From Candidatus Moraniibacteriota bacterium (GTDB taxonomy: Bacteria > Patescibacteriota > Minisyncoccia > Moranbacterales > UBA1568): a stretch of DNA of 64,000 nt. The position numbers were made by a program, and so were the translations under genes. Of the stretch, positions 27,609 to 63,223 are shown piece after piece. The DNA is taken from positions 654,098 through 718,097 of the forward strand of contig CP064975.1 in NCBI GenBank assembly GCA_016699425.1, in the 5' to 3' direction. The notes under the pieces are model-generated. The model worked only from the letters and a program-made list of their open reading frames with translations, was not told the DNA's origin and did not search any database. How positions within the stretch are numbered: position 1 is the stretch's first letter; each line of letters starts with the position of its first letter.

Positions 27609-27623
27609 AATTCTCCCAACACT
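27538..27623. repeat. AT-rich repeat element, copy 1, upstream of sufS and overlapping the sufD 3' end
   Basis: It shares 'AATTTTCAATTTCC' and 'CAATGAATCAATTTCA.AATT' with the copy at 28848-28958. It is far below the local GC content. Confidence 0.5.
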
Positions 27624-28847: not shown

Positions 28848-28958
28848 TAATTTTCAATTTCCAGTTCTCAATTTTCAATCAATTTCCAATGAATCAATTT
28901 CAAAATTGAAAACTTGAAAATTCAATGAAAATTAGAAATTGAAAACTGAAAATTTCTT
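28848..28958. repeat. AT-rich palindrome-rich repeat element, copy 2, between sufS and sufU
   Basis: A string of short perfect palindromes (TTTCAAAATTGAAA, TTGAAAATTCAA, AGAAATT..AATTTCT). It shares two blocks with the copy at 27538-27623. Confidence 0.5.
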
Positions 28959-43919: not shown

Positions 43920-43989
43920 AGAGTTCGACGCGTAACTACCATCCCCAGTATAGCGGAGAATGCACTCTAAGAAAACCGATGCCGGATGT

Positions 43990-45054: not shown

Positions 45055-45551
45055 GCGCTACCGACCATTCCCTTCGTTCATCCGGGTCGTTCCTGGCCCA
45101 GGCGACGAAACCTACTTCGGACTCCAGGTCCCTCGTCAGCCCTGGCTACCACCAGGAGCAAAGAATATCGATGTTCTCCCAATGTCTTTTGTGGATCATC
45201 TACAGCTAGAAATCCGAACCGCGGCAGGTTCACATATGATTTCGCGAGACCAGTTCCACCAGCTGATGGTCACGGTGATCACAATCAGTAATAGGTTCTG
45301 TTCAGGGGTCGGGTACCCCTGCCATCTGGCAGTGATCGCGTCCGGTGAGATCGTCAACGATTTCGGAAGTCAGAGCGCGGCACAATTCTGTTCCAATGGA
45401 CTCGTCTTCGAAGTCAGCAGGCTCTGCATCGATCTGCTGCAGGAATACCTCCTGGTGCCAGAATATCCTTCTTCAGTAAACAGCGACGCAGAGAATCGTC
45501 TCTATGCCTCGTCCGTGGTGCTGAAAGATAGAGTCCTCCACCAGTTCGTCC

Positions 45552-46700: not shown

Positions 46701-46786
46701 AGGAATCGTTGCCCGCGGAACAAGAACAAGCTCTAAGTCTAAGGGGTGTCCCGAGACCCGTCAGCCTATCAGAATCATGTGAGAAA

Positions 46787-48931: not shown

Positions 48932-48994
48932 ACTTCAGATGCGTTGATCTTTTAGAGGGAAAGAAATCGGCCTACCGAACGGCCAGAGTGCTCA

Positions 48995-50272
48995 TCATTG
49001 TACCGGCAAATTGCCCGGCGCGCCACCCCGCTTCGTCATGACGCGCGAGAACGACGGAGCGAGCACCTGCATATCCGGGAGGTGATAGATAGTTGCCAAT
49101 TCTTCGGATGAAAACATGAACCGGTTTTCCTGAGGATCGGGATCACGCGTGATATACCGGCGGAGGAGTCGGCGCTGCCGATACCGGAGACGCGGCTCGA
49201 CCATAACATAGCTCGCATAGGTCTTGGTGAGATCGTCTGGTATCATGCTATTCATCGCGAGATCATTGAATTGTTTGATGGCCCCGATAAACGCCGAGAC
49301 TCCCGTCGCTTTGGAAAAGTGCTCCTTCTTCCCAAGATAGACATGGCGCATTTTGATCTTGAACATCGGTTTCCCGATATTGCTCTCGAGCGCTTTCAGG
49401 ATATCCTTCTGTCCGGGTGTGAGACGGAATTCGACGGGCTGTTCCTCGGCTTTGGCCGCCTCCTCCTGGCTGGTCCACTCCAGTTCACTCCCCATCATGC
49501 CGGAAAACAGGTTATGAAAAACGTCAGCCAGGTCATGCCAAACGCGTGAAAATATTCCCGGCCGCTCGACTTCCTCATGACCGAGAAATTCTTCGATGGT
49601 TAGCGCGCCTTTCTTCGGGCCCCAGTCCTCCTTCACCGGCGTCGCGATGAATTGCAGCCAGAGATGCTGCCCCGGACCGAGCTTCCCCATGGTTTCGATC
49701 AGTCCGGCCATTGGGTCGAGCATCTTGCCGGTCACCGATTCCTCGAAAAATTTGTAGGTCCGAATTGGATAGAGATCGGGCTTGAGGAGCTTGAACTCCG
49801 TCCCCCAGAGGTCCCAGTCCTTGTTCGGCACGGTCCGCGGCACCTGCTTCGTATAATCCTCGGCTTCCACGATCTCGACATCCGGGTACTGGGCATAGAA
49901 ATGCGCTTCGACCAGATTGCGAAACGCCTTCTGCGTCCGGATGAACATATGGACCTTGCCCTCAGCACTCACGAGCTCGAGCGAAAAACTCACCGGGTAT
50001 TCACCGAGGATGAATTCTTCATACGCCGATGATGTTTTGATCACTCCAGCAAACCCAGAGTAGATGAGCTCCATCGGATGCGGGCTCTTCTCCAGCAGTT
50101 TCGGAGCGACGATCTCGAGCAGCACCCATTCGATCTTGCCCCCGAACACATTGTTCCGGCTATCGATCCAGAGAAATATGAAAATCGGGTAAAAAATGAA
50201 CGGAATGATATAGAACCAAACATCGCTTGCGACTGAAGCGATAGTGGCTATGTTATGGAAAAATTCGAACAT
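48995..50272 (-). CDS. Membrane-anchored protein of unknown function, probable partner of the downstream ATPase
   Basis: An N-terminal TM hairpin ('VWFYIIPFIFYPIFIFLWI'), then a ~370 aa soluble domain. It lies 63 bp upstream on the same strand as the ATPase. Confidence 0.4.
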   Translation of the reverse strand: MFEFFHNIATIASVASDVWFYIIPFIFYPIFIFLWIDSRNNVFGGKIEWVLLEIVAPKLLEKSPHPMELIYSGFAGVIKTSSAYEEFILGEYPVSFSLELVSAEGKVHMFIRTQKAFRNLVEAHFYAQYPDVEIVEAEDYTKQVPRTVPNKDWDLWGTEFKLLKPDLYPIRTYKFFEESVTGKMLDPMAGLIETMGKLGPGQHLWLQFIATPVKEDWGPKKGALTIEEFLGHEEVERPGIFSRVWHDLADVFHNLFSGMMGSELEWTSQEEAAKAEEQPVEFRLTPGQKDILKALESNIGKPMFKIKMRHVYLGKKEHFSKATGVSAFIGAIKQFNDLAMNSMIPDDLTKTYASYVMVEPRLRYRQRRLLRRYITRDPDPQENRFMFSSEELATIYHLPDMQVLAPSFSRVMTKRGGAPGNLPVQ

Positions 50273-50423
50273 GCGACAGTGTCACTACATTACGAAGAAC
50301 GTTGTCTTCATCTAGCAGTATAAAGAGTTTTCACCCGGGAGCAAACTCCTTCCCATCCCGAGTGCTCTCGATGAGTCCCGCTACTCAGGAACGTACCAAA
50401 ACTATTCAGTTCAGGAACCCGAG

Positions 50424-51500
50424 TTACCGCTGCTTGTCAGAAAGAGAATAGATGTTCTTCCCAACCTTTGTGAAGAAGCTGTTGAGATTGATGATCACGG
50501 TCGAACGCTTTACTTGACGGACCTTCATGACCGCCTTCAGGAGTTCTTCACGCGTCATCGGTGTCTCGTGTTCCTTCAAAATGGACGAGAGTACCTCGCG
50601 GACCGTGCCCGGACGGAAACCCCAATCGGAGAGCGCATAGGTCCCGCGTCCGACCAAGACGAAACGCTGGTCCTTGATGAGTTCATTATGCACCGTCTGT
50701 GGATGCGTCTTCTTGCCGGTCTTGTAGAGGCCGTGTTCATCGATGAGACGAGCAATCTCACGGAAATGCAGTGGCTTCTTCATTACCTGGAGGATGAGGT
50801 GGGCGCGCTCGCGAGTTCCGCGCGGACGAACCGCACTCCAGTGCGAGAGACCATAGCGACCGAAAGCATTCTTCTCGATTTCAGCCGATGGCGCAATGAA
50901 TGACTCGAACGTCTCTTTCGTGAGGTCAGTGTCCCCCGACTGCTTCACATACATCGAATAGAGTTCTTCCAGTGACTGGACTTCACCAGATTTTTGAAGG
51001 AGGTTCGTTACTGACGTAATCATCGCTTCCCACTCGTCCAGCGAAAAAGCATCCGTTGTGACCACCAATTTCCGCTCGGCCGTCTCTTTGCTAATCTGGA
51101 CACCGGGAAATGCCGGGAGGAGCGCAAGCAGCGATTTTTGTTCTGATACTTTCCCTCCACCGAGGGCCGCGAGCAAATCATCCACGGACAGAATACCGCC
51201 GCGCGCCTGCACCGTCTCGATGACGCGCCTCACGAGAATGTGGTCACCTGCCTCTGCCATGACTTCCTTGACCCGCTTCATGATGACATCGACGATCTGA
51301 CGAACTCGTTCGCGCGTGATGCCGTGAGTCTTCCCGATTTCCTCAAGGGTCTTTTCCTGACCATCAGAAACACCATAACGCTCACGTGTGATAACTCCGG
51401 AACGCTCTGGGAAAGACGACAACAGAGCACCCAAAAGCTCTTCGGCAGAGCGGGTGCTTGACAGACGAGTGGAATCGATCGGTTTCCTTCTTTCAGCCAT
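50424..51500 (-). CDS. DNA-binding protein with an N-terminal sigma-70 region-4-like HTH and a C-terminal HARE-HTH-like winged helix
   Basis: 'EKTLEEIGKTHGITRERVRQIVDVIMKRV' is like RpoD region 4.2 ('TLEEVG..F.VTRERIRQIE'). The C-terminus 'LHFREIARLIDEHGLYKTGKKTHPQTVHNELIKDQRFVLVGRGTYALSDW' resembles HARE-HTH. No sigma region 2 is present. Confidence 0.45.
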   Translation of the reverse strand: MAERRKPIDSTRLSSTRSAEELLGALLSSFPERSGVITRERYGVSDGQEKTLEEIGKTHGITRERVRQIVDVIMKRVKEVMAEAGDHILVRRVIETVQARGGILSVDDLLAALGGGKVSEQKSLLALLPAFPGVQISKETAERKLVVTTDAFSLDEWEAMITSVTNLLQKSGEVQSLEELYSMYVKQSGDTDLTKETFESFIAPSAEIEKNAFGRYGLSHWSAVRPRGTRERAHLILQVMKKPLHFREIARLIDEHGLYKTGKKTHPQTVHNELIKDQRFVLVGRGTYALSDWGFRPGTVREVLSSILKEHETPMTREELLKAVMKVRQVKRSTVIINLNSFFTKVGKNIYSLSDKQR

Positions 51501-51617
51501 AAAAAACTTCAGTAATTAGCATTTCTGAGAACGCCTCATATTAACGCATATTACCATATTTTGTCAAGAGCCGTAATAGAACCGACATTCTCCGGTCCAG
51601 TTTCCTCTCGATCACAG

Positions 51618-51647
51618 TTTGCAGTTGACAAATATGTCTTGTATAAT
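51618..51647 (+). promoter_or_regulatory. Candidate sigma-70-type promoter for gene 51707..52474
   Basis: TTTGCA, an 18-bp spacer and TATAAT (51642-51647), lying ~60 bp upstream of the start codon. Confidence 0.25.
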
Positions 51648-51706
51648 TTCAGACAGGGAAACGCCAAAGAAAGTTTCCCTCTAAAAACAGAGACAACAAA
51701 AAAAGT

Positions 51707-52474
51707 ATGGCTGATTCTTCGACCGAACCCAATTCCCAAACTGCTCCGGACAATGGCAACAAGATCCAAGCCCTCCGGGACATGATTTTGAACGCTGAAC
51801 GCACCATCCAAGGAGCCAAGGCGATGCTGCTCCAGATTGAGGGAAAGAAGAAAACTGGCCGGCCGAAGAAGTCAGATGATGATGCGCTCGGGATTGTGGT
51901 TGAGGGTACCTTTGATGGCCAGATCATGCTCGGAACGGATGGCAAGCAATATCCTGTTCCCGCCAATTACGCGTCCAAGTCCAAACTCGTCGAAGGTGAC
52001 ATGCTGAAGCTCACCATCACTCCCGATGGCTCGTTCATCTACAAACAAATTGGACCGATTGACCGGCGCCATGCCATCGGCATCGTGAGTCAGGACGAAA
52101 ACGGCAATTACCACATCGTGGTTGAGGGTGAACCGTTTCGTGTCCTGCTCGCTTCCATCACCTATTTCCGAGCTGAGCCAGGTGATGAAGTCGCTGTCAC
52201 CATGCCCCGCGATCTCTCGGCCTCCTGGGTTGCGATCGAGAACATCCTGCAGAAAGGTGCTTTCGGAGCACCCGCCCCGATTGTGAAGCCCGCCGGCGAA
52301 CGCCACTTGAACGCCGACTGGAAGAAAGATCTCGCCGAAAAGAAACCAGTTGATACTCCAGTCCCAGCCGAACCAGCCGTCCCCGACGCGACCGCCAATG
52401 CCAACCTCTCCCCGCTCGATGCCTGGGTGAAAGACATGGAAGCGATCGAGAAGGAGATCGCCGAAGGACGCTAG
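51707..52474 (+). CDS. Hypothetical protein (255 aa)
   Basis: Protein-like composition with a C-terminal acidic/Pro-rich tail. No domain recognised. Confidence 0.4.
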   Translation: MADSSTEPNSQTAPDNGNKIQALRDMILNAERTIQGAKAMLLQIEGKKKTGRPKKSDDDALGIVVEGTFDGQIMLGTDGKQYPVPANYASKSKLVEGDMLKLTITPDGSFIYKQIGPIDRRHAIGIVSQDENGNYHIVVEGEPFRVLLASITYFRAEPGDEVAVTMPRDLSASWVAIENILQKGAFGAPAPIVKPAGERHLNADWKKDLAEKKPVDTPVPAEPAVPDATANANLSPLDAWVKDMEAIEKEIAEGR

Positions 52475-52514
52475 TGCAGTACATAAATTATTCTATACTT
52501 CGTCACCCAATATC

Positions 52515-53006
52515 ATGGAAACTCCTGTTGTCACAGTCGAGAGCGCAGTCGTCGTTGGAGCTGAAAATCGAGTGGTCCGCATCGTAAAGCAGTTCTCGAA
52601 ATTCATCATCGTCGGCGGAGTAAATACGGGAATTGATTTTCTCGTTTTGAATATTCTTATGTTCATGACGCACATCAATTCCGGACCGATGCTTTTTGTG
52701 CTGAATTGCATTTCGTTCTCTGTCGCAGTCGTCAACAGTTACTATATGAATCGACGCTGGACCTTCAAAGAGGCAGCGGCGGGGCTGGGCGAAAAGAAAG
52801 CCACTGTCCAATTCTCACAATTCTTTGTGGTTTCGGTCATCGGTATTATCCTGAACGGTACCGTCCTCACTGGCATCACCTCGGCGATTACCGCACCGTT
52901 CGGCATCGGGCCCCAACTCTGGGCCAATGTTGCCAAGCTCTTCGCGACCGGTGTCTCGCTCGTCTGGAACTTTATCGGCTACAAGCTCTTCGTCTTCAAG
53001 AAATAG
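52515..53006 (+). CDS. GtrA-family membrane protein (polysaccharide synthesis/flippase accessory)
   Basis: 'FSKFIIVGGVNTGIDFLVLNILMF' and 'RRWTFKE' are GtrA-like motifs. The protein has 4 TM helices. Confidence 0.6.
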   Translation: METPVVTVESAVVVGAENRVVRIVKQFSKFIIVGGVNTGIDFLVLNILMFMTHINSGPMLFVLNCISFSVAVVNSYYMNRRWTFKEAAAGLGEKKATVQFSQFFVVSVIGIILNGTVLTGITSAITAPFGIGPQLWANVAKLFATGVSLVWNFIGYKLFVFKK

Positions 53007-53103
53007 CTCCCCGCTCGATCCTAGCCCCGCTCAAACGGCGGGGTTTTGTTTTGCTCGCCCGAAGACGGTATAATAGGAGTCACTGTTTCACCCTACACGA
53101 ATT

Positions 53104-54738
53104 ATGTCCGAAACCTTCTACCGCAAATACCGCCCGCTCCAATTCAAAGACGTCATTGGACAAGAAACGGCTGTCACCGTCCTCACTCAGAGCCTCGTCA
53201 CAGGGAAACTCGCTCATGCCTATCTCTTCACTGGACCGCGCGGCACCGGTAAGACGACCTTGGCCCGCCTCTTCGCACGTGCGCTCAACTGCTCCAGTCG
53301 GAAAGACAAATCTGCGGAACCCTGCGGACGGTGTACGCATTGTCTCGCGATGGCCGATGGCCGTTCACTCGATGTCATCGAGATCGATGCTGCTTCCCAC
53401 ACCGGGGTCGACAATATCCGTGAACTCCGCGAGACCGTCACGAGCGCCCCGGTTCTCGGCAGCCACAAAGTCTATATCATTGACGAGGCGCACATGCTCT
53501 CCATCGGTGCCTGGAATGCTCTCCTGAAGACCCTCGAGGAACCGCCCGCCCATGTCGTCTTCGTCCTCGCCACTACCAACGCCGCCAAAGTACCCGAAAC
53601 CATCCTTTCCCGTACCCTACGTCTCGACCTGCGTCGCTTCCCCGTAGAAATGATCGTGACCAAGCTCGAAAAGATCGCCAAAGCTGAAAAACTGAAGGTC
53701 GAGAAAGACGCTCTCACCCTTATAGCCCGTACCGCTCAGGGCGGGATGCGCGATGCCGAAGTACTCTTCACCCAGATCGCGACGCTCGAGGAGTCCCCCA
53801 TCGATGCGGCCCGGGTCGCACTCCTCCTCGGGACGACAACCCTCGCCGCCAATCACGCTCTCATGCAGGCCGTTGCTGAGCGCGATCTGACCCGTGCTTT
53901 TGCGACCGTCACCGAACTGAAAGACACCGGTGCCCAGCTCGCCGGCTTCACTCTGTCGCTCCTCGAATACTGCCGCAAGCTTCTCTTCGCATCCGTCGAT
54001 AGGGCAACAGCGGAGAAACTCATCGATGATTTCACGAAAGAAGAAAAGGCCGAGCTCTTCACGCTCGCCACGACCCTCGGTTCCAGCCGTATCGTCGAAT
54101 GCCTCGAGCGTTTCCAGGAGGCCGACCGCCTCATCAAGGTCTCGCCGCTCCCGGAGCTTCCGATCGAGATCGCTCTGGTGAAGCTCATCCAAAGCGAACA
54201 GCCGCCCATCATAGCTTCAGCTGCGCCGAAAGTCACACCTCTGGCGGCGCCCGCGAGCCAGCCGAAAGTGGTCACTCCCGATCGATCCCAGCCCGCTCCA
54301 GCTGCTCCCAGCGCACCCGAGAAGTCAGCTTTGACCCCCACCTCAGTACTATCCTCTGCCGAGGAAGAACGGGCCGAGACTGATGCTCCAGTCGATCTCG
54401 GGCTGGCACTCCGCCAGTGGCCCGCTATCATGACTCATGCCCTCCGGCTGAACGCCTCGCTCGGTGTCGCCCTCTCGACGGCCACACCTGTCATCAAAAG
54501 CGAAAAGCTCTTGCTCCAGGTGAAGTATCCCTTTCACAAAGAGCGCCTGGAGCAAAAGTCGAATCGATTGACACTCGACCAGGCCTTTGTTACGATCTTG
54601 GGGTTTCGTACGCCGTGGAGCATCACCACGGAGAAAGATGCCGCGACTGAGGCACCTGCCGCCTCAGCTGAACGCCCCGCCATCATCGATGAAGCAATAA
54701 GCATGCTCGGTGGCCAGCTCGTTCAAGAGAGTTCCTAG
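53104..54738 (+). CDS. dnaX: DNA polymerase III subunit gamma/tau
   Basis: 'FYRKYRPLQFKDVIGQE...LAHAYLFTGPRGTGKTTLARLFARALNC' and the Zn module 'CGRCTHC', then 'VYIIDEAHMLS' and sensor 'LKTLEEPPAHVVFVLATT'. Confidence 0.85.
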   Translation: MSETFYRKYRPLQFKDVIGQETAVTVLTQSLVTGKLAHAYLFTGPRGTGKTTLARLFARALNCSSRKDKSAEPCGRCTHCLAMADGRSLDVIEIDAASHTGVDNIRELRETVTSAPVLGSHKVYIIDEAHMLSIGAWNALLKTLEEPPAHVVFVLATTNAAKVPETILSRTLRLDLRRFPVEMIVTKLEKIAKAEKLKVEKDALTLIARTAQGGMRDAEVLFTQIATLEESPIDAARVALLLGTTTLAANHALMQAVAERDLTRAFATVTELKDTGAQLAGFTLSLLEYCRKLLFASVDRATAEKLIDDFTKEEKAELFTLATTLGSSRIVECLERFQEADRLIKVSPLPELPIEIALVKLIQSEQPPIIASAAPKVTPLAAPASQPKVVTPDRSQPAPAAPSAPEKSALTPTSVLSSAEEERAETDAPVDLGLALRQWPAIMTHALRLNASLGVALSTATPVIKSEKLLLQVKYPFHKERLEQKSNRLTLDQAFVTILGFRTPWSITTEKDAATEAPAASAERPAIIDEAISMLGGQLVQESS

Positions 54739-54820
54739 AGGCTATAAAACTTAGGGGTTAGAGAGAACACTGGCTCAGCTCTCTAGAATCTATCTTCTAG
54801 TCACTAGTAACTGAATTTAA

Positions 54821-54892
54821 TGGGGAGTAGCCAAGTGGTAAGGCAGGGGCCTTTGAAGCCTCCATGCGATGGTTCGATCCCATCCTCCCCAG
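54821..54892 (+). tRNA. tRNA-Gln (anticodon UUG)
   Basis: Manual fold: acceptor TGGGGAG/CTCCCCA with U1:A72 (typical of bacterial tRNA-Gln), D-arm GCC-AAGTGGTAA-GGC, anticodon stem GGGGC/GCCTC with loop CTTTGAA (anticodon TTG), T-arm GATGG-TTCGATC-CCATC and discriminator G. CCA is not encoded. Confidence 0.75.
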
Positions 54893-54913
54893 CATAAAGA
54901 ACATCTTGTAAAT

Positions 54914-55480
54914 ATGGATATCGGTATTTGGGGAGACAGCATTACGTATGGCGAAGGCGATCGTGAAGGTCTGGGATGGGTAGGAAGACTCCGAAGATCA
55001 CGCCTCACTACTGACTATTGCGTTTATAATTTTGGTGTCTGTGGCGATACCACAGAAGACCTCTTGAAACGTTTTGTTATAGAAGCAAATTCAATTCAGC
55101 CAGATATAGTGGTGTTTGCTATAGGTATCAATGATTCAAAGATTCCAGCAAATGAAACTGCCAATAAAGTTACGATTGAAAAGTATCAGAAAAATATTCA
55201 AGAGCTCCTTAAGATGGCTAGAGGCTATACGGATAAGATTTATATAGTTGGGGCAACAAAAGTGAACGATCAGACCATAAGAGACAGCGGGACAAGATTT
55301 AAAAACGAAACTATTCAAACGTATAATAAATACCTCAAAGAGCTGTCTTTATCAGAAAACCTTATTTTCATAGATGTGTTTGAGATTCTGGATACAAACA
55401 ATGACTTAGAAGATGGGTTACATCCAAACGCTCGAGGTTACGAAAAGCTTTATCAGATTTTAAGCAAACTTGTAAAATAA
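54914..55480 (+). CDS. SGNH/GDSL-family hydrolase
   Basis: 'IGIWGDSITYGEGD' is the GDS(L) block I, and a block V-like 'DGLHPNARGYEKL' (DxxH) is present. The start is at the ATG at 54914, because the track start at 54869 lies inside the tRNA. Confidence 0.65.
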   Translation: MDIGIWGDSITYGEGDREGLGWVGRLRRSRLTTDYCVYNFGVCGDTTEDLLKRFVIEANSIQPDIVVFAIGINDSKIPANETANKVTIEKYQKNIQELLKMARGYTDKIYIVGATKVNDQTIRDSGTRFKNETIQTYNKYLKELSLSENLIFIDVFEILDTNNDLEDGLHPNARGYEKLYQILSKLVK

Positions 55481-55500
55481 TTTTAGTTCCTCAGCTACGC

Positions 55501-55540
55501 CTTTCCAATCTTCAGTTCTGAACACATCCAATAAGACCAG
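55501..55540 (+). repeat. Intergenic repeat family A, copy 1
   Basis: 'CTTTCCAATCTTCAGTTCTGAACACATCCAATAAGACCAG' fits the consensus ..TTTTTCCAATC.ACAGTTC.GAACAC.TATCCAATAAGCC.AG. Confidence 0.6.
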
Positions 55541-55716
55541 CTTTTGTTAACGGAAATACCCCTTGTGGGTGTTATTGTTTATAATGGGACGGATGGGAGC
55601 GAACAGGAAAGGCCTGCCTGCCGGTAGGCAGGGGTCGGGAAAACGGAAGTTTTCCTGTGGCGGAGAGCAGCGAGTCATCGAGTGTTGAGAACCGAGGGGT
55701 TCTCAAAGAGCGAAGC

Positions 55717-55745
55717 GAGTAAGATTCCCATCCTCCCCAGCACAC
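55717..55745 (+). repeat. Degenerate direct repeat of the tRNA-Gln 3' end (att-like)
   Basis: 'GCGAGTAAGATTCCCATCCTCCCCAGCA' parallels the tRNA 3' end 'GCGATGGTTCGATCCCATCCTCCCCAGCA'. The last 17 nt are identical. It lies 850 bp downstream of the tRNA. Confidence 0.6.
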
Positions 55746-55751
55746 AAACTT

Positions 55752-56309
55752 ATGCAAAAAGTAGTCATCGTACATTGTTGGGACGGATATCCAGACTACT
55801 GTTGGTATTCGCAAACTAAGAAAGAGCTTCAGGAAAAAGGATTCGAAGTTCTCGTGCCAGAAATGCCTGAAACAGGTACTCCAAACCTCACTTTGTGGCT
55901 GCCTACGCTTCAGGCTCTTGCCTCAGAGCCGAATGAGAGTCTCCATTTCGTTGGACATAGTGCTGGATGTATTACAATCCTGAGATATCTAGAGCAGCTG
56001 AAAGATAGCCAAAAGATAGGAAAGGTTATCTTAGTAGCTGGCTTTACGGATGATCTTGGCTATGAGGAACTCAAAAACTTCTTCACAACGCCTATTCTTT
56101 TTGAAAAGATAAAACAAAGAGCGGAACATTTCGTGGCAATCCATTCAGACAACGATCCTTTTGTAGATCTAAAATATGGTACAATTTTCAAAGAAAAGTT
56201 AGGCGCAGACCTCATTATAAAAAACAAGATGGGTCATTTTTCTGGCGAGCGCGACAAAGAAGGGAGTTGCGTTTCACTTCCCGAAGTGTCAGAGGCTTTG
56301 ACTAGATAA
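55752..56309 (+). CDS. Alpha/beta serine hydrolase, RBBP9/YdeN family
   Basis: 'VVIVHCWDGYPDYCWY...' and the nucleophile elbow 'FVGHSAGC' are characteristic of PF06821. Confidence 0.55.
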   Translation: MQKVVIVHCWDGYPDYCWYSQTKKELQEKGFEVLVPEMPETGTPNLTLWLPTLQALASEPNESLHFVGHSAGCITILRYLEQLKDSQKIGKVILVAGFTDDLGYEELKNFFTTPILFEKIKQRAEHFVAIHSDNDPFVDLKYGTIFKEKLGADLIIKNKMGHFSGERDKEGSCVSLPEVSEALTR

Positions 56310-56310
56310 G

Positions 56311-56374
56311 TTGGAGCAACCTAGTCCGCAATCTTTTTCCAATCAACAGCTCCGAACGCATCCAATAAGCCTAG
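56311..56374 (+). repeat. Intergenic repeat B+A, copy 2
   Basis: 'TTGGAGCAACCTAGTCCGCA' is B-like, and 'ATCTTTTTCCAATCAACAGCTCCGAACGCATCCAATAAGCCTAG' is A. It ends 11 nt before the ATG of the next gene. Confidence 0.6.
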
Positions 56375-56385
56375 CAAAATACCAT

Positions 56386-56886
56386 ATGCCAAAAATATTA
56401 GTACTAGGCCCCTCTGGTTCGGGAAAAACATATATTTCTGCCGCGCTTCGTGAGAAAGGGATCAATGCTCTCGACGGAGACCTCATCGAAAACTTATCAG
56501 ATTGGTTTGATGGCACCGGTAACAAAGTCGGGTGTCCGCCTGATGCTAATAAAGAATTTCTCGATACCCATGAATTTCTTTGGGATAGGGAGGTACTGAA
56601 AGACTTTCTAAAACAACAAGACAGCGTCTATCTTTTTGGAATGTCAGGCAATGCTTTTGATATGGTTGATCTTTTTGATAAAACCTATTTTCTAAAAGCG
56701 ACTCCCGAGATTCTCGCAAATAGACTACGACACGAGAGCAGAGAGAACCCTATGGGTAAAACTGACTACCAACTTCAAAATGCTCTTGATTGGGCAAAAG
56801 AAATAGAGCAAGAAGCCTCAAGCCGAGGAATTGCTACGCTTGACGCAAATAAATCTCCTGAAGAAATTTTTGATGAAATAGTTTAA
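56386..56886 (+). CDS. P-loop NTPase, small-molecule/nucleotide kinase-like
   Basis: Walker A 'ILVLGPSGSGKTYIS'. The ~165-aa length and overall pattern suggest the shikimate/chloramphenicol-phosphotransferase/AAA_33-like kinase family. Confidence 0.45.
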   Translation: MPKILVLGPSGSGKTYISAALREKGINALDGDLIENLSDWFDGTGNKVGCPPDANKEFLDTHEFLWDREVLKDFLKQQDSVYLFGMSGNAFDMVDLFDKTYFLKATPEILANRLRHESRENPMGKTDYQLQNALDWAKEIEQEASSRGIATLDANKSPEEIFDEIV

Positions 56887-56895
56887 TGTCTTCCG

Positions 56896-56942
56896 AAATC
56901 TTTTTCCAGTCCATAGTCCTGATACGTATCCAATAAGCCCAG
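56896..56942 (+). repeat. Intergenic repeat family A, copy 3
   Basis: 'AAATCTTTTTCCAGTCCATAGTCCTGATACGTATCCAATAAGCCCAG'. Confidence 0.6.
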
Positions 56943-56953
56943 TGAAATATTTC

Positions 56954-57994
56954 ATGAAAACTTTTACCCCAACAAAAAAATTATCCAATGGCGACAAAGT
57001 CGCTATTCTATCACCATCATTTGCTGCTCCCGGAAAATGGCCTCATGTCTACGAACTTGGACTAAAAAGATTGCGGGAAAATTTTCAATTAGAACCTGTA
57101 GAATTTCCAACCACAAAAAAGATTGACGCATCCAATGATGAGAGGACTCAAGACTTGATAGCTGCATTTGAAGATAAGAACATACAAGCGATCATCTCTT
57201 CCTTGGGCGGTAACGACCAAGTAACTTATATAAAGAATCTTCCTTCGAAGCCATTCACAGATAATCCGAAACCATTTTTCGGATATAGTGATAACACTCA
57301 TTTTATGAATTTCCTGTGGCTCCATGGAATTCCTTCCTATTATGGAGGCGCTCTTTTTACCCAGTTTGCCGAGTCGGGAAAAATAAACGAATACACGGCC
57401 CAGCATTTGAAAATCGCGCTCTTTCAACGCGGTGAAGTTAGCATTCAGGCAAGCGACTCCTATTGTGATCAGGGCCTGAGCTGGGACGACCAAAAAAATC
57501 TCGAGGTGAGTAAGTCGTATGAACCCAATGCAGGCTGGTTTTGGGATGGCGACCAAAACGCAACGGGCATTACTTGGGGAGGTTGTCTGGAATCAATTGA
57601 TGAATTACTCCGTCATGCCATTCCCATTCCATCACTACAAGATTTTGAGAATATCATTTTACTAACAGAAACATCTGAAGAAATTCCTTCACCGGAGTAT
57701 GTCAGACGTGTTTATAGAGCGCTAGGAGAGCGAGGAATACTGGAAAGGATCAAGGGTTTCCTCGTGGGACGGCCCAAAGCCTGGGAATTCGATACTCAAA
57801 AAAGTAGCGAAGAAAAAGAAGAGTATCGAAAAAAACAACGAGAGGCTACTCTGCAAATCATACGGCAATACAATAAAACCGCACCGATTGTACAAAATGT
57901 AGATTTTGGCCATACTGATCCACAGATTCCCATGCCCTACGGCATGCCTGTCCAGATAAACGCAGAAAATAAGGAGGTAATCGTCAATTTCTAA
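56954..57994 (+). CDS. LD-carboxypeptidase (peptidase S66, LdcA/MccF-like)
   Basis: 'GDKVAILSPSFA' and the nucleophile motif 'FFGYSDNTHFMNFL' (GYSDxT). The ~345-aa length fits the family. Confidence 0.6.
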   Translation: MKTFTPTKKLSNGDKVAILSPSFAAPGKWPHVYELGLKRLRENFQLEPVEFPTTKKIDASNDERTQDLIAAFEDKNIQAIISSLGGNDQVTYIKNLPSKPFTDNPKPFFGYSDNTHFMNFLWLHGIPSYYGGALFTQFAESGKINEYTAQHLKIALFQRGEVSIQASDSYCDQGLSWDDQKNLEVSKSYEPNAGWFWDGDQNATGITWGGCLESIDELLRHAIPIPSLQDFENIILLTETSEEIPSPEYVRRVYRALGERGILERIKGFLVGRPKAWEFDTQKSSEEKEEYRKKQREATLQIIRQYNKTAPIVQNVDFGHTDPQIPMPYGMPVQINAENKEVIVNF

Positions 57995-58020
57995 AGACCT
58001 GTGTTTCCTGTAGGAGATAC

Positions 58021-58041
58021 GTTCCAACCTCGTCCCAGAGC
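58021..58041 (+). repeat. Intergenic repeat family B, copy a
   Basis: 'GTTCCAACCTCGTCCCAGAGC' fits the consensus GCTCCAAC.TCGTCC.AGAGC. Confidence 0.55.
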
Positions 58042-58087
58042 CGCAGCCACCGTTGCTCGCGAACGACGTGGCCAGCACCGATCATCT

Positions 58088-58897
58088 ATGACAACATACG
58101 AGACATACTTTAAAGACTTCATTGGACGAGCGGAAAAGTTATCTGCGGTAAAACGATATCGTGCATACGACACGATGTTCTACCGGACCAACCTCGCCAC
58201 GCACTCGAAGCGCGTCGGTTGGCAGACAATGGCGCTCCTCGCGATGCTCCCCGACGATATCCGCCAGACGCTCGACCAAGAAAAAATACTCCTCCTTGCC
58301 TGGGTTCACGATGATCACGAGATATTTGCTGGCGATCACCAATCAGCAAGCGAGTGGCATATGACCAGGCAGCAATGTACCGATCAGGAAACAAAGGAGG
58401 CATGGGCTGTCGAAAAAACTGCCAAGATATTCCCGCATCAGCTCGGACGACATGTCTATCACGATCTCCTCGCAGAGGCCGTGCGCGTCGACACGATTGA
58501 ATCACAACTAGTAAAGCTCGCTGACAAGATCGAGGGCTGTGGCGAGGCGCTCCATGAAATCTTTGGCGGGAATGTGGGCTTTACTGTCGAAGTGAAGGAC
58601 CCCGACCATGACTATGGTAAAACCAACCCCATTCCTCCGGTGTACTACGGTCACTATTTTGACCATCTTCCAAAAAAACTCCCTCTCCTCGAACCCTGGA
58701 GAGCCTTCCTTGTACCTCCCCTCGTGAGCTGTCACGACAATATCAACTTTTCCGAGCTCGCCGCATTACATACTCCGCACACGAGAGCCTCACTGGATAT
58801 CCCGATTGGATTCGCGCCATACGACTATTGGAAAGCCACCTTCCTCGCCTCTGGGAGCGAAGATGAAATCCATCAGCTGTTTGTCCGCGCGGGATGA
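58088..58897 (+). CDS. HD-domain phosphohydrolase (YfbR-like 5'-deoxynucleotidase family)
   Basis: 'THSKRVGWQTMALLAML' and 'LLLAWVHDDHEIFAGDHQ' are the H...HD...D metal-binding motifs. Confidence 0.5.
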   Translation: MTTYETYFKDFIGRAEKLSAVKRYRAYDTMFYRTNLATHSKRVGWQTMALLAMLPDDIRQTLDQEKILLLAWVHDDHEIFAGDHQSASEWHMTRQQCTDQETKEAWAVEKTAKIFPHQLGRHVYHDLLAEAVRVDTIESQLVKLADKIEGCGEALHEIFGGNVGFTVEVKDPDHDYGKTNPIPPVYYGHYFDHLPKKLPLLEPWRAFLVPPLVSCHDNINFSELAALHTPHTRASLDIPIGFAPYDYWKATFLASGSEDEIHQLFVRAG

Positions 58898-58945
58898 TTT
58901 TCAAGCACCAGCACCCATAATCTCGTCTATTATCACAACCCCACT

Positions 58946-59449
58946 ATGACAGAAAACATCTCACACGATAGCGAAACACCAGCCCAGGGTCAGCAAGTTA
59001 TCACAGCTTGTGCCTTTATTCATCACAACTTTGATGAAATTGAAAAAGTATTCCTCCCCAAACGGGCTGACACCAAAAAATTCTTGCCCGGAGTCTATGA
59101 GCTTCCGGGTGGGCATATTGATTACGGTGAGGACATCGTCAAAGGACTTGAGCGTGAGATTATGGAGGAGTTCGGCATGAAGGTGACAATCGGAGACCCC
59201 TTTGCTACTTTTACCTACCTCAACGAGATAAAAGGCTCCCACTCAGTAGAAATCATCTATTATGCAGCGTTTGTCGATTCTCTAGAAAATATCACTCTTC
59301 ATCCCGAAGATCACTCTCAATTTGAATGGGTTGCAGAAGATGAGCTGCAAAAAGTCTTTACCGAACACAAAAAAGGCGACGATCCAGAAATACAAGCCAT
59401 AGAGAAAGGCTTTTCTCTGCTCAGAGGAGAATCATTAGCCTTTCACTAA
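58946..59449 (+). CDS. NUDIX hydrolase
   Basis: The NUDIX box reads 'GGHIDYGEDIVKGLEREIMEEFG' (GX5EX7REUXEEXGU). Confidence 0.7.
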   Translation: MTENISHDSETPAQGQQVITACAFIHHNFDEIEKVFLPKRADTKKFLPGVYELPGGHIDYGEDIVKGLEREIMEEFGMKVTIGDPFATFTYLNEIKGSHSVEIIYYAAFVDSLENITLHPEDHSQFEWVAEDELQKVFTEHKKGDDPEIQAIEKGFSLLRGESLAFH

Positions 59450-59471
59450 AGTAACTTCATCCAGTAGAAAA

Positions 59472-59492
59472 GCTCCAACTTCATCCCAGAGC
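59472..59492 (+). repeat. Intergenic repeat family B, copy b
   Basis: 'GCTCCAACTTCATCCCAGAGC'. Confidence 0.55.
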
Positions 59493-59548
59493 CTAGGAAG
59501 ACAAACTTTAATTACATTTAGAAACTCACAAAGCGTACACGTAAGAAC

Positions 59549-60172
59549 ATGTTTACATTACTCACTACCAGTATATATTTTGGTGTATCAGCAGCTCACT
59601 GGCTTGTGATTTTGTCAGCGCTTATAAGTTTCAGCGGGGCATTCGCGTACATACGCGACATGATAAGAGGTAAATCGAAGCCAAACTTAGTGACTTGGGG
59701 TCTTTGGGCATTTGCTCCTCTCATCGCCACCGGCGCTGCTCTGAGTGCAGACTCCGATTTGTGGTCAACTGTCAGAATCTTTATGTCTGGCTTCGGACCA
59801 CTTTTAGTTTTTGTCGCTGCTCTTTTAGTTTCTCAAGGCTACTGGAAATTATCAAAATTCGACTACTTTTGTGGTCTCATATCGCTTTTCGCTCTTGGCG
59901 CTTGGACTCTTGCTGATGAACCTATCCTAGCAATATTATTTGCTGCTACAGCAGATTTATTTGCAACCATTCCGACCGTTCTAAAGGCCTGGAAGTATCC
60001 CGAGACAGAGACGCTTTATACCTATTTCGTTGGTCTCTTTACTGCTACAATAGTCATTCCTGCAATTCCTATTTGGAATATCGAAAATGCTGCTTTCCAA
60101 GCGTATCTGTTGGCAGCAAACGTTGTATTATTTTTTGTGGTTTTAAAAGGAAAGCTCCGGAAGGAAAGTTAG
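59549..60172 (+). CDS. Integral membrane protein (6 predicted TM helices), unknown function
   Basis: Continuous hydrophobic helices. No motif recognised. Confidence 0.4.
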   Translation: MFTLLTTSIYFGVSAAHWLVILSALISFSGAFAYIRDMIRGKSKPNLVTWGLWAFAPLIATGAALSADSDLWSTVRIFMSGFGPLLVFVAALLVSQGYWKLSKFDYFCGLISLFALGAWTLADEPILAILFAATADLFATIPTVLKAWKYPETETLYTYFVGLFTATIVIPAIPIWNIENAAFQAYLLAANVVLFFVVLKGKLRKES

Positions 60173-60225
60173 GTTTCTTAGTAAAAAAAGTTCTAGCCCA
60201 TCTTAAACCTCAACATGTACAGTCT

Positions 60226-60660
60226 ATGGATATCGAAAACACCATTCGCGAATATATTAGCGATGTGCTCCACATGTCACTCGCCACCTGTAAGGATAGT
60301 AAGCCCTGGGTATGCGAGGTGCATTTTTCTTTTGATAATGACCTCAACTTTTACTTCCTCTCCAAACCTGAGAGACGCCATAGCCAGGAGATATCGTTCA
60401 ATCCACACGTTTCAGGAAACATCATCCATGAGCACGCCATTGGCGAATCAGTGAGAGGAGTCTATTTTGAAGGTCGAGCGGAATTCATCCCCAATATAAG
60501 TGAAGAGCACCCTGCCTATCGTACTTATTGCCAACGTTTCAATATGGGACCAGAAATTCTCGATCATGGATTCTACGCCATAAAAGTGACTGACCTCTAT
60601 CTTTTTGATAATAAAGAAACCGAACCTGGTCAAAAGTATCACCTCCCCTGGTCTCAATAA
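60226..60660 (+). CDS. Pyridoxamine-5'-phosphate-oxidase-like FMN-binding split-barrel protein
   Basis: 'IREYISDVLHMSLATCKDSKPWVCEVHFSFDNDLNFYFLS' is the PNPOx-like (general stress protein 26 type) N-terminal pattern. The start is at the ATG at 60226. Confidence 0.45.
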   Translation: MDIENTIREYISDVLHMSLATCKDSKPWVCEVHFSFDNDLNFYFLSKPERRHSQEISFNPHVSGNIIHEHAIGESVRGVYFEGRAEFIPNISEEHPAYRTYCQRFNMGPEILDHGFYAIKVTDLYLFDNKETEPGQKYHLPWSQ

Positions 60661-60680
60661 GCTCCAACATCGTCCTAGAG
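60661..60680 (+). repeat. Intergenic repeat family B, copy c
   Basis: 'GCTCCAACATCGTCCTAGAG' sits directly after the stop codon. Confidence 0.55.
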
Positions 60681-60694
60681 TATCAGCACACCCT

Positions 60695-61225
60695 ATGTAC
60701 TATCTTTATCATAAAGTACCCAAAGAGCTCGAAGGAAATATTCTCTATCCTCTAAATCAATTAGAAACTCTTCTCCCGCGTACCTTTGAAAAAGAGAAAG
60801 AAAAATACAGGGGGAGGGAAATGCTTCTGCAGGTAAAGATACCTTTTCTCGACTGTCTTTGGAATGATGTCCTACACCTCACGGCCGTTCCTCCAGTCGA
60901 GATAAAAAAGGCACTGATTGAAGCAGGGCGAACGCCTGATTTTAACATGAACTGTTTTCAAATTGACCCAGCAATGCTTGAGGCGGAGAACACCGTTATT
61001 TATCTCTACACTCAGAATAGCCTCCAAGATATATCAGAAGAAAATAACTTTAGACCATACGATGCGACAAAAATATCCCAATACTCAGAAGTACCACAAA
61101 AAACGAGAGCCTATTACGAAGAGCTCCTGAGCGAAGGAAAGAAACCACTCCTCTATCATTTTATTCCACACATTCTCTATAAAGGGTCTATCGATACGAA
61201 AAACTTAGAACGTATCACCGTGTAG
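60695..61225 (+). CDS. Hypothetical protein (176 aa)
   Basis: An ORF starting at the ATG (MYYLYHKVPKEL), with low GC like the rest of the island. Confidence 0.35.
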   Translation: MYYLYHKVPKELEGNILYPLNQLETLLPRTFEKEKEKYRGREMLLQVKIPFLDCLWNDVLHLTAVPPVEIKKALIEAGRTPDFNMNCFQIDPAMLEAENTVIYLYTQNSLQDISEENNFRPYDATKISQYSEVPQKTRAYYEELLSEGKKPLLYHFIPHILYKGSIDTKNLERITV

Positions 61226-61254
61226 CATTGAGATACTCAATATTTAAAAGTGTT

Positions 61255-61309
61255 AATCTTTTTTGACTTTTCCCCAATCCACAGTTCCAAACACGTATCC
61301 AATAGCCAA
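61255..61309 (+). repeat. Intergenic repeat family A, copy 4
   Basis: 'ATCTTTTTTGACTTTTCCCCAATCCACAGTTCCAAACACGTATCCAATAGCCAAG'. Confidence 0.6.
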
Positions 61310-61387
61310 GCATCGACAGACGGGACGCTGTGTGCTATTATCCAATGTTGCAAAATCGCAACAGCCCATTACGAAAAGGAGGTACCG

Positions 61388-61591
61388 ATGGCCACGTGGC
61401 ACAGCGTAAGAATGGTGGATGACAGGGAACAGAACGCCGAGGAGAAGATTGCTACCGCATTGAATCTCTGGCAGACCAAGCATCCCGACAGAAAGATTGT
61501 GAACCTACACCTCACGACGGGCCGACTCCTTGGTTCCAAGGGCGTATATGTCATCGGCATCTTCACCTCAGAGGAATGGCAGAGTAAGTAA
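61388..61591 (+). CDS. Small hypothetical protein (67 aa)
   Basis: A strong SD (AAGGAGG) 6 nt upstream of the ATG. No domain recognised. Confidence 0.35.
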   Translation: MATWHSVRMVDDREQNAEEKIATALNLWQTKHPDRKIVNLHLTTGRLLGSKGVYVIGIFTSEEWQSK

Positions 61592-61698
61592 TCCCGAAAG
61601 GCATGGCGACCCGCCACAAGTGGTCGTCTTCTTTTTTTCACAAAGAAGCTCTCTGAGCAATACTTCACTCGATAGTTGGTATGCTATCCTGAAAATAT

Positions 61699-62355
61699 AT
61701 GAACAAAACCGTCATCTTCGACCTGGATGGTACACTGGTGGATATCGAGCCGGTTTTTCTTCGCATCTACAATACGCTGGCAGCGGAATTTGGACTCGCG
61801 CCCATTCGACCAGATGAACTTCCGGCTCTGAGGAAGCTCCATCTGAAACAGGTGATGTTTCGGCGGCTCGGCTGGCGGATAGTTTTCCTTCCGCGGATTT
61901 TGAAACGGGGCCAGACAGAATACCGGTTGCTCGTCCCCGAGGTCGAGCTCTTTCCCGGTATCCAGGAAACCCTCACACACCTCCGAGCCTTCGGTTATCG
62001 GATCGGTATCATCTCTTCGAGCGAACGAACGACGGTCCTCGCGCTCATCGAAAAATTTGGTCTCGATATCGATTTTGTCTATCAGAGTTCGCTCTTCGGA
62101 AAGGCCGCGATCCTGAAGGAAACGGCCGAAAAGGAATCATTTGCCCTTGCCGATACGGTCTATATCGGTGATGAGATACGCGATATCGATGCTTGTCGGA
62201 AGGCCGGCCTTGATATCATCGCGGTCACGTGGGGGCTAAACGACCGCTCAGCCTTGATCGCGACCGGTGCCCCGACAGCCGACACGCCTGCCGAACTCGA
62301 GGCGAAAATCCTCGCCCTCCTTCCGCTTAGTCACTCTCTCAAATCTCAACGCTGA
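61699..62355 (+). CDS. HAD-superfamily hydrolase, subfamily IA (phosphoglycolate-phosphatase/beta-PGM-like)
   Basis: 'VIFDLDGTLVD' is motif I, 'IGIISSSER' motif II, and 'YIGDEIRDIDACRKAG' motif IV. Confidence 0.65.
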   Translation: MNKTVIFDLDGTLVDIEPVFLRIYNTLAAEFGLAPIRPDELPALRKLHLKQVMFRRLGWRIVFLPRILKRGQTEYRLLVPEVELFPGIQETLTHLRAFGYRIGIISSSERTTVLALIEKFGLDIDFVYQSSLFGKAAILKETAEKESFALADTVYIGDEIRDIDACRKAGLDIIAVTWGLNDRSALIATGAPTADTPAELEAKILALLPLSHSLKSQR

Positions 62356-62516
62356 TAGATAAAAGAAACCAACCGCTTATCTCATAAAATACTCAGATTT
62401 CGGCTGAAAACCTCTCAGCGCTCGTCAGGATATCTCGATAGCCTTCCTCGCTTTTCAAGATTTTCCTCTCGTCCCGCCAGGGCGGGATCTCGAGACATGA
62501 GATTTGAGAGAGTGAC

Positions 62517-62879
62517 TTACCAGCTCTTCCCATCAAACGGCGTCAGCGTAAGTTTCGCAATATCGACATCCGTGAGCGTCCGGACATTGATGGCCACCGT
62601 CTCGGCACCCGTCGTTGGGTCTTTCCCTTTCGCAATCGGTTGGACACCGCAAAACCGACAGAACAGGTGCTGCAGTGTCTTCTTGTTGAAGCGATACTCC
62701 ACCAAATCATCCACCCCAGAAAGTAATCGGAACTGAGCGCCCGGAACAAAGGCGAGGAGCATCCCTTTCATGCTGCAGTGAGAACAATTGCACTCGAGCA
62801 CAGACGCGAGATCAGTTTCAACCTCGAAAGCGACCTTTCCACAGTGGCATTTTCCCTGGTATTGATTGGCCATTGGCAT
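62517..62879 (-). CDS. GFA/CENP-V family zinc protein (glutathione-dependent formaldehyde-activating enzyme-like, Mss4-like fold)
   Basis: 'GKCHCGKVAFEV...CNCSHCS...CRFCGVQ' is the CxC...CxC...CxxC Zn pattern of the family. Confidence 0.6.
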   Translation of the reverse strand: MPMANQYQGKCHCGKVAFEVETDLASVLECNCSHCSMKGMLLAFVPGAQFRLLSGVDDLVEYRFNKKTLQHLFCRFCGVQPIAKGKDPTTGAETVAINVRTLTDVDIAKLTLTPFDGKSW

Positions 62880-63025
62880 AATTTAGTACTCCTACTATAG
62901 CATGGATAAGCCTAGAATGGGGCTTGCTTTTTCCAGAGAAAGCTGTTATCATGGACCCATAGAAGTTGAGGAATATAGTCGAGTTTCCCGCTTTCTAGAC
63001 TAATTGAACATAGAGCAGCACCATT

Positions 63026-63223
63026 ATGACTGGTACTATCAAGACGCTCACGGATCGTGGATTCGGTTTCATCGCTCGCGAAGGCGAAGTGAAGGACCTG
63101 TTCTTCCACTCCAAGGAGCTCTCCGGCGTGACGTTCGATGAGCTCAAGGTTGGCGATGTCGTCAGCTTCGAAGTCGTCGACGGTGAGAAGGGCCCGGCCG
63201 CGGTCAATGTGACCCGCGCCTAA
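63026..63223 (+). CDS. csp: Cold-shock protein (CspA family)
   Basis: 'MTGTIKTLTDRGFGFIAREGEVKDLFFHSKEL...GDVVSFEVVDGEKGPAAVNV' carries the RNP1 'RGFGFI' and RNP2-like motifs. Confidence 0.85.
   Translation: MTGTIKTLTDRGFGFIAREGEVKDLFFHSKELSGVTFDELKVGDVVSFEVVDGEKGPAAVNVTRA

Follow-up and report, generated by a model that had tools for sequence, protein, structure and literature searches.

We analysed a 64,000-nt stretch of the genome of Candidatus Moraniibacteriota bacterium (assembly GCA_016699425.1, contig CP064975.1; hereafter the window), in which a tRNA-Gln(UUG) gene is followed by a second, exact copy of its last 17 nt. Our results make it probable that the end of the tRNA gene and this downstream copy, here called the mimic, are the attachment points of an integron-like or staphylococcal cassette chromosome (SCC)-like cassette hotspot, which would operate by a recombination mechanism that we infer. 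We observed that cassettes are present or absent with base precision after the motif CAGC, both at the tRNA and at the mimic, and that the same cassettes are reused among arrays and genomes. Bacteria of the candidate phyla radiation (CPR, or Patescibacteria) have very small genomes in which few mobile elements have been recognised. The locus bears on how they acquire accessory genes: single-gene cassettes turn over between strains with base precision at one tRNA end, and some cassettes are common to lineages whose core genes are only about 50% identical.

The tRNA-Gln end and the turnover of cassettes

According to ARAGORN and Rfam the window contains one tRNA gene, the tRNA-Gln(UUG) at 54821 already named in the initial annotation, and it is preceded by dnaX (53104-54738, Pfam). 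The final 17 nt of the tRNA gene, TCCCATCCTCCCCAGCA (54878-54894), occur again at 55726-55742. The search for further copies that the initial annotation had proposed returned these two and no others from the window, even at a tolerance of three mismatches. The repeat is genuine and no chance match; the expectation for an exact 17-mer in 128 kb is ~1e-5 by our own arithmetic. A recurrence of the last ~29 nt had been described originally; the terminal 17 nt are indeed exact, and further 5' the copies are weakly alike (GAT-CCC versus GATTCCC), with no match beyond that. The downstream copy is not a tRNA or tRNA pseudogene, as no cloverleaf was recognised by ARAGORN or Rfam RF00005 and positions 55400-55850 remained blank even at E <= 10. 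A phage or viral origin was considered and rejected: a scan of IMG/VR with the 17-mer and two element motifs gave chance or tRNA matches, and nhmmer gave none.

Directly 3' of the tRNA gene the GC content falls from ~0.56 to 0.40-0.43, and at more than 40 loci the flanks of tRNA-Gln diverge between strains or species straight after ...CAGC. The last bases of the gene, ...TCCCATCCTCCCCAGC (54878-54893), are best read as the putative proximal attachment point, at which recombination would take place. The region of the two copies is organised as follows.

54821..54892, plus strand: tRNA-Gln(UUG) (Rfam 63.1 bits; ARAGORN 54821-54893)
54894..55541, plus strand: strain-specific cassette of 648 bp, absent from strain L125 (blastn, three-way junction alignment)
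54894-54913, plus strand: cassette leader, 20 nt
54914-55480, plus strand: open reading frame (ORF) of a GDSL/SGNH hydrolase (Pfam 2.7e-29)
about 55505-55541 (repeat copy 55502-55541), plus strand: repeat A1, the 3' site of the SGNH cassette, ending in CCAGC
55555..55573, plus strand: terminator-like hairpin AATACCCCTTGTGGGTGTT, followed by a T-rich tail (scan; conserved in relatives)
55581-55586, plus strand: TATAAT, a putative -10-like box
55584..55742, plus strand: structured non-coding element of ~160 nt (fold, covariance model, covariation)

The near-identical strain L125 (GCA_049662085.1) has a DnaX 99% identical to that of the window, is regarded as the same species and shares 96% nucleotide identity with window positions 43112-54893 (11.8 kb). 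Its tRNA-Gln joins directly to the sequence starting at window position 55537, and its order, with junctions marked by slashes, is tRNA-Gln / TTTTGTTAACGG...element...CCCCAGC / one different ORF / HAD hydrolase gene. It keeps the terminator hairpin, the element and a tRNA-like tail of 16-17 nt, all 94.5% identical, and has no SGNH gene. In the window the 648-bp block is edged by CCAGC at 54889-54893 and at 55537-55541, and in the junction alignment the left part of repeat A1 resembles the last ~38 nt of tRNA-Gln. Distally the SGNH segment is bounded by repeat A1 and ends at 55541, not at 55742. Since L125 has the downstream copy without the SGNH gene, the two copies do not bound one insertion; it lacks only 54894-55541 and still has both copies, which is not the presence/absence pattern of attL and attR.

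The initial annotation had taken the repeat as a sign of integration into a tRNA 3' end, enclosing an SGNH gene, a copy of an intergenic repeat and hairpins but no integrase. The enclosed content was confirmed in every item, including the missing integrase (none by Pfam among 40 window ORFs), and the tRNA-Gln end does emerge as an insertion point; however, L125 shows that the copies are not attL and attR of 850 bp. A downstream copy in relatives without the island's content had been named as speaking against an insertion, and for the 850-bp segment L125 presents this, keeping the copy without the SGNH gene.

On the far side of the element, L125 ceases to match the window at 55754, and homology returns at 61677. 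After ...CCCCAGC, L125 has a single unrelated ORF of 165 aa and then the HAD gene, in place of the 5.9 kb and 9-10 genes of the window. This implies that the 17-mer marks the proximal boundary of a strain-variable array, in line with one of the two options offered originally, the proximal boundary of a low-GC island. The other option, a decayed remnant, does not hold, because the copy is the 3' end of an element conserved with compensatory changes where DnaX is only ~50% identical. The array, its sites and its distal flank are listed below.

55743..61676, plus strand: strain-variable array of 9-10 co-oriented small genes, mostly of low GC (Pfam; L125 comparison)
55752-56309, plus strand: Ser_hydrolase (Pfam)
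56386-56886, plus strand: AAA_18 kinase (Pfam)
56954-57994, plus strand: LD-carboxypeptidase, MccF-like (Pfam)
58088-58897, plus strand: HD/YfbR-like protein (Pfam)
58946-59449, plus strand: NUDIX protein (Pfam)
59549-60172, plus strand: membrane protein
60226-60660, plus strand: PNPOx protein (Pfam)
60695-61225, plus strand: protein without an assigned family
61388-61591, plus strand: small ORF
about 56339-56375, 56906-56943, 58017-58047, 59470-59495, 60657-60687 and 61275-61313: inter-cassette sites
61699-62355, plus strand: HAD hydrolase, distal flank
62517-62879, minus strand: GFA-family gene, distal flank
63026-63223, plus strand: cold-shock protein (CSD), distal flank

The distal flank (61677..63223) is conserved in L101, L126, L131, L132 and L133. 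These genus-level relatives (with L133 taken together with L134) have DnaX proteins 76-82% identical, and the seven relatives of this level carry seven differing gene sets between tRNA-Gln and the HAD/(GFA)/CSD flank. Among distant relatives, shared cassettes are always joined after ...CAGC, and most of them have a ~31-nt site without a hairpin at their end. Exact-protein look-ups with the window's DnaX and SGNH proteins returned no record, and homologues were used. The SGNH cassette was found in three kinds of context: right after tRNA-Gln and followed by the terminator and the element, as in the window (L135-138); mid-array, behind another site and followed by a Lactamase_B cassette (L139-141); and behind a different tRNA-Gln, followed by a PNPOx cassette (L142-144). 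In all of them the homology starts exactly at ...AGC/AAATAAAA, the upstream partners being otherwise unrelated, and the cassette ends in GTTCCAAC.TCGTCCCAGAGCCTCAGC/. The SGNH identity is 71-80% where the DnaX identity is 47-51%. Moreover, the PNPOx gene (60224-60662) is 76% identical to that of L102 at the nucleotide level, with homology stopping <=2 nt from the ORF ends, and the NUDIX protein is 91% identical to that of L097; the DnaX proteins of these two loci are about 47-50% identical to the window's. As expected of integron cassettes, SGNH, PNPOx and NUDIX recur as co-oriented single-ORF cassettes in different arrays.

The inter-cassette sites have a ~31-nt consensus, GTTCCAAC.TCGTCCCAGAGCCTCAGC, and take the form of a GTTC box...CAGC over ~31-55 nt. 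A hidden Markov model (HMM) of the site gave 29 matches in the 1.81 Mb of sequence analysed. All 29 point the same way as the tRNA-Gln or cassette genes around them, and each has a stop codon 5' of it and an ATG 5-20 nt beyond it. The sites show weak likeness to the tRNA 3' half, from which they may or may not descend. The view that they are simply degenerated copies of that half was rejected: the HMM misses the tRNA and only the summed score is significant, although repeat A1 does show the likeness. The idea of attC-like hairpins was dropped because the sites do not fold, and that of minus-strand gene remnants because the sole ORF (61253-61483, minus strand) is implausibly Cys-rich and one repeat copy is frameshifted. 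The cassette ORFs (54894-61225) have short A-rich leaders in which a Shine-Dalgarno sequence is not visible; the small ORF at 61388 has one, AAAGGAGG. This hints that the cassettes initiate translation in another way or are of foreign origin.

In L096 (114-1652) and L105 (117-1586; both in tRNA orientation), two different large serine recombinases with Resolvase, Recombinase and Zn_ribbon_recom domains lie directly against the 3' end of tRNA-Gln. These loci belong to the same species group, with the same dnaX-tRNA flank, as L085, L086, L100, L104 and L108, and the L085-type, L096 and L105 alleles diverge right after CCCCAGC. The recombinases abut the tRNA-Gln end, which is therefore a bona fide integration site in this clade; the distal ends of their elements were not found before the contigs end. 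Strain-level junctions thus lie at the tRNA 3' end both between the window and L125 and among the L085-type, L096 and L105 alleles, as expected of a tRNA-anchored hotspot. By eye we also recognised in L105 a tyrosine recombinase gene and a gene for a probable DNA methylase. The window itself has an IS256/Mutator-family transposase gene at 19860-20987 on the minus strand (Transposase_mut 2e-11), 35 kb away, which is the sole transposase-type gene among the 40 ORFs scanned.

The structured element that ends in the mimic

The terminator-like hairpin ahead of the element is conserved in L125, L098, L133, L094, L109 and L136, and in the relatives such a hairpin stands ahead of each element copy. 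At 55575-55604 the 3' half of the tRNA recurs in inverted and imperfect form (24 of 30 nt), which the initial annotation had overlooked. The 5' arm of the element (about 55587-55604, inverted and tRNA-like) pairs with the 3' arm that ends in the 17-mer (55726-55742), and the arms enclose a body of several hairpins. The fold of 55584-55742 has an energy of -72 kcal/mol (z = -4.6); the window copy folds on both strands (z = -4.6 and -5.6), which is a caveat on the strand call.

A scan of metagenome contigs with the 5' 45 nt of this tRNA yielded 29 related loci. A homologous element was found directly after tRNA-Gln, behind a terminator-like hairpin, in L084, L094, L095, L098, L099 and L109, and in most of these six loci it ends with a copy of the tRNA 3' end of its own genome. 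The element also follows the tRNA directly in L127-130, as it does in L098. The length of the module across the clade is ~150-220 nt. A covariance model (R1), built from four distant members with the window sequence left out, recovered the window copy (55584-55742; 15.2 bits, E 0.009-0.03) and 13 copies in total, the window included. In the 13-sequence alignment 86% of the cells were paired, compared with 75% in shuffles and ~40% with slid partners, and double-sided changes were seen in 20 of 39 base pairs; these figures come from an alignment fitted to the model and from a family of 13 sequences. One compensatory change is the window's UUGAGAACC-GAGG-GGUUCUCAA in place of CUAGAGGGC-GGAA-GCCCUAUAG. 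The ratio of G.U to A.C was 28:6, which favours the plus strand as the folding strand, and in the interior of the element both the sequence and several separate helices are conserved.

No match to the element was found among the 4227 models of Rfam 15, either at gathering thresholds (window) or in E-value mode (element), nor did the element loci of the six relatives match Rfam at E <= 1. The known RNA families considered for it (tmRNA, RNase P, signal recognition particle RNA, 6S RNA, Y RNA and riboswitches) were rejected, having no Rfam or ARAGORN match. The element is a candidate for a new family.

In L136 a second copy of the element lies in the middle of the array, with CAGC/ at both edges and a near-perfect copy of the host tRNA end, and is followed by a terminator-like hairpin; none is evident in the window between the element and the first cassette ORF. 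In one lineage 13 of 13 contigs break inside the element, just past the tRNA. The element behaves as a non-coding cassette would.

Proposed mechanism and alternative explanations

We propose that the interval from dnaX-tRNA-Gln to the HAD/GFA/CSD flank is a cassette-insertion hotspot in this Moraniibacteriota clade. The attachment point would be the extreme 3' end of tRNA-Gln (...GGTTCGATCCCATCCTCCCCAGC/), and the downstream 17-mer its second copy. Each cassette would comprise a leader that is short and A-rich, a single ORF and, in most cases, an unstructured 3' site, and cassettes would join immediately past ...CAGC, at the true tRNA or at the mimic. By this account the window has one cassette (SGNH) at the tRNA and nine or ten past the mimic (55743-61676), gained and lost by presumed site-specific recombination. 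As no recombinase is encoded in the array, the enzyme would act in trans, the large serine recombinases of one related species being the best candidates, and enzymes of the L096/L105 type may move the cassettes. The mimic could be a landing pad that spares the essential tRNA. In addition, given its location behind a terminator-like hairpin and a -10-like box, the module may double as a transcribed leader, or expression platform, of a promoterless array. The fuller claim, that Moranbacteria possess a new type of integron-like gene capture based on the tRNA-Gln 3' end and its mimic as capture site and perhaps also as expression leader, on single-ORF cassettes with short non-hairpin GTTC...CAGC sites that pass between lineages and on a trans-acting recombinase, possibly a large serine recombinase, is one that we hold tentatively and at somewhat below even chances.

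Several observations weigh against the proposed hotspot. No tyrosine or serine recombinase was found by Pfam among the 40 window ORFs, and no recombinase in the 20-kb neighbourhoods of L125-L144. When seven sites were folded as single-stranded DNA on both strands, 14 of 14 folds were no stabler than shuffles (z from -0.9 to +1.6; 12 of the 14 at +0.15 to +1.6), and no dyad symmetry is obvious in the sites, unlike in known integron or Xer sites. The site HMM does not match tRNA-Gln itself, and the likeness of the sites to the tRNA 3' half has single-site p values of 0.02-0.8, being significant only when summed. The HD and membrane-protein cassettes lack a recognisable site. Some copies of the element have no acceptor-like tail (L095, L136a/L137), and its occurrence is patchy, with absence from L101, L126 and L131-L133. 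As to the SGNH event, either the window may have gained the segment or L125 may have lost it precisely, and all comparators are metagenome assemblies. Promoter and terminator scans of the region gave no enrichment over shuffles; since these matches are at chance level, our statements on transcription are kept conditional.

An alternative that we consider unlikely is that the element is a small RNA gene derived from tRNA-Gln or resembling it, whose 3' match has RNA reasons (shared 3' processing, CCA addition, protein binding), that it takes no part in recombination, and that the variability beyond it is that of an ordinary tRNA-linked island. The conserved structure with its compensatory changes and G.U bias to the plus strand, as well as the terminator-like hairpin and -10-like box upstream, would suit such a gene; in addition, CCA is encoded behind the tail in L084, L099 and L109, and nhmmer detects a weak likeness of the element's 3' half to tRNA bodies. 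As in tRNA-like RNAs (tmRNA, YrlA/Y RNA, viral tRNA-like structures), the 3' end copies the acceptor/T-stem strand, sometimes with CCA, and the ends pair. However, the element has no T arm, D arm or tag ORF, it is not tRNA-like by ARAGORN or Rfam, and its distribution is cassette-like, being patchy within one genus with the tail missing in some copies. Moreover, cassettes begin exactly past its ...CAGC, as they do past that of the tRNA, and in L136 it stands mid-array between two CAGC junctions.

Rather improbable, in our estimation, is the absence of any site-specific system, in which case homologous or short-homology recombination following the uptake of DNA would reshuffle the arrays. The ~31-nt C-rich motifs would then be expression signals that happen to give homology, such as translation enhancers for ORFs without Shine-Dalgarno sequences, Rho sites or RNase sites. 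This would accord with motifs that are unstructured (z > 0) and lie 5-20 nt ahead of the next ATG, with cassette ORFs that have no visible Shine-Dalgarno sequence and with arrays that hold no recombinase, and the HAD gene and the tRNA, as conserved flanks, could anchor replacement. Nevertheless, the junctions are base-precise past CAGC even with the tRNA as partner, where only 4-5 nt are common, and no such motif precedes the cassette that stands first behind the tRNA; in relatives, serine recombinase genes abut the same tRNA position.

The element could also act as DNA, its single-stranded arms folding into a duplex like the tRNA end that is recombined as a hairpin; we regard this as highly unlikely. 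Hairpin attachment sites are represented by the attC of integrons and by the attP(+) of CTX-phi, which is folded from two inverted sites. Here, too, the 5' arm is an inverted and the 3' arm a direct copy of the tRNA 3' half, the two can pair into a target-like duplex, both strands fold well and the element is cassette-like in behaviour. On the other hand, its conserved body of several helices differs from attC, whose terminal structure is variable, the G.U bias points to the transcribed-sense strand, the ordinary cassette sites do not fold, and neither a gene for an integron integrase nor a dif-like (Xer-type) site was found near the array. Finally, a classical scar, with the tRNA end and the 17-mer as attL and attR of a ~850-bp element that has lost its integrase, is hardly credible: the intact tRNA gene whose 3' end recurs as an exact direct repeat of 17 nt, the low-GC DNA between the copies and the precedent of tRNA-integrating elements would fit it, but in L125 the downstream copy and the entire element are present without the SGNH gene, the right junction is at 55541 rather than 55742, the element directly follows the tRNA in L098 and L127-130, and it is conserved with covariation and shows no decay.

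Relation to known systems and other features of the window

The proposed hotspot shares traits with several known systems. In Prochlorococcus, tycheposons are integrative elements that build genomic islands seeded at tRNA genes (bioRxiv 10.1101/2020.12.28.424599). As in those islands, the tRNA 3' end here would serve as the attachment site, partial tRNA repeats occur inside the island, newcomers would push older arrivals inward, integrase-less remnants are present and the remaining genome is syntenic. Here, in contrast, each unit is one ORF of 0.5-1 kb whose ends are base-precise, no element of the window has a recombinase, most internal sites are a distinct ~31-nt motif and not clear partial tRNAs, and the second copy of the tRNA end sits on a conserved structured module.

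Integrons carry intI next to attI, and their attC sites fold as imperfect hairpins with R''-L''/L'-R' boxes. The array resembles sedentary chromosomal integrons and clusters of attC sites lacking integron integrases (CALIN) in its co-oriented, apparently promoterless single-gene cassettes, each with a site-like 3' repeat, in repeats that are homogeneous per lineage, in the recurrence of cassettes elsewhere and in a fixed proximal insertion site. It differs in that no intI lies beside the proximal site, where dnaX stands upstream and the cassettes downstream, in that the sites are short and unstructured without the R''-L''/L'-R' palindrome, and in that a tRNA 3' end or its mimic takes the place of attI as the proximal site. 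The SCC elements found in staphylococci are large-serine-recombinase islands at rlmH, and their recombinase-less units are thought to be moved in trans. The likeness to these lies in the extreme 3' end of a conserved gene as target, a short common core, tandem composite arrays and the large serine recombinases that L096 and L105 carry at this position of tRNA-Gln; in contrast, the target is a tRNA and not rlmH, the units are far smaller, and neither recombinase is linked to the cassettes of the window.

If a dedicated mechanism does exist, it would be a gene-capture system distinct from integrons, offering a directly testable DNA site, CCCCAGC/, and a ~150-nt structured element. We found no account of such arrays or of the element in CPR bacteria in the literature, of which our coverage was incomplete, and prior work is possible. 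For annotation the locus carries the lesson that a partial tRNA repeat need not be an integration scar.

Small GIY-YIG nuclease genes were noticed near tRNA-Gln in several relatives. In L001, L083 and L097 such a gene lies between tRNA-Gln and a partial, nearly perfect repeat of the tRNA's 3' end, and in L101 a small one (3143-3403) is found upstream of tRNA-Gln; those of L083 and L001 have a common leader motif, TTCGC(T)AAGCTAC. These genes may be selfish cassettes or may have a part in cassette mobility. In L001 (CAZQWS010000004.1, 11627-13052; DnaX 58%) tRNA-Gln is inverted and placed between dnaX and the GFA gene, and is followed on its own strand by the GIY-YIG gene and then by the partial tRNA 3' copy within a ~60-nt hairpin. 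This layout suggests an inversion of the segment that comprises the tRNA and the array, and the inverted arm of the window (55575-55604) could illustrate how inverted copies like that of L001 arise.

Elsewhere in the window, a 238-nt direct repeat occurs five times at 1153-6798, with 64-71% identity, a spacing of 1.05-1.6 kb and low GC. The repeats lie inside two giant ORFs on the minus strand (1135-4485 and 4365-8930), and repetitive surface proteins are the probable products of the region. A class-V aminotransferase (cysteine desulfurase-like) gene at 27624-28847 is flanked by AT-rich 76-nt direct repeats that are 78% identical (27535-27614 and 28844-28956, plus an extra short copy). Two adjacent paralogous genes without a Pfam match are located on the minus strand at 39679-40434 and 40644-41633, and their DNA is 72-74% identical between the blocks 39700-40074 and 40683-41054. 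Upstream of the hotspot, the minus strand of 46787-50272 encodes a TrwB/TraG-like ATPase with a zinc finger and DUF8128, followed by a Sigma70_r4/HARE-HTH protein; this ATPase/DUF8128 pair is conserved in L125-L133 and L142.

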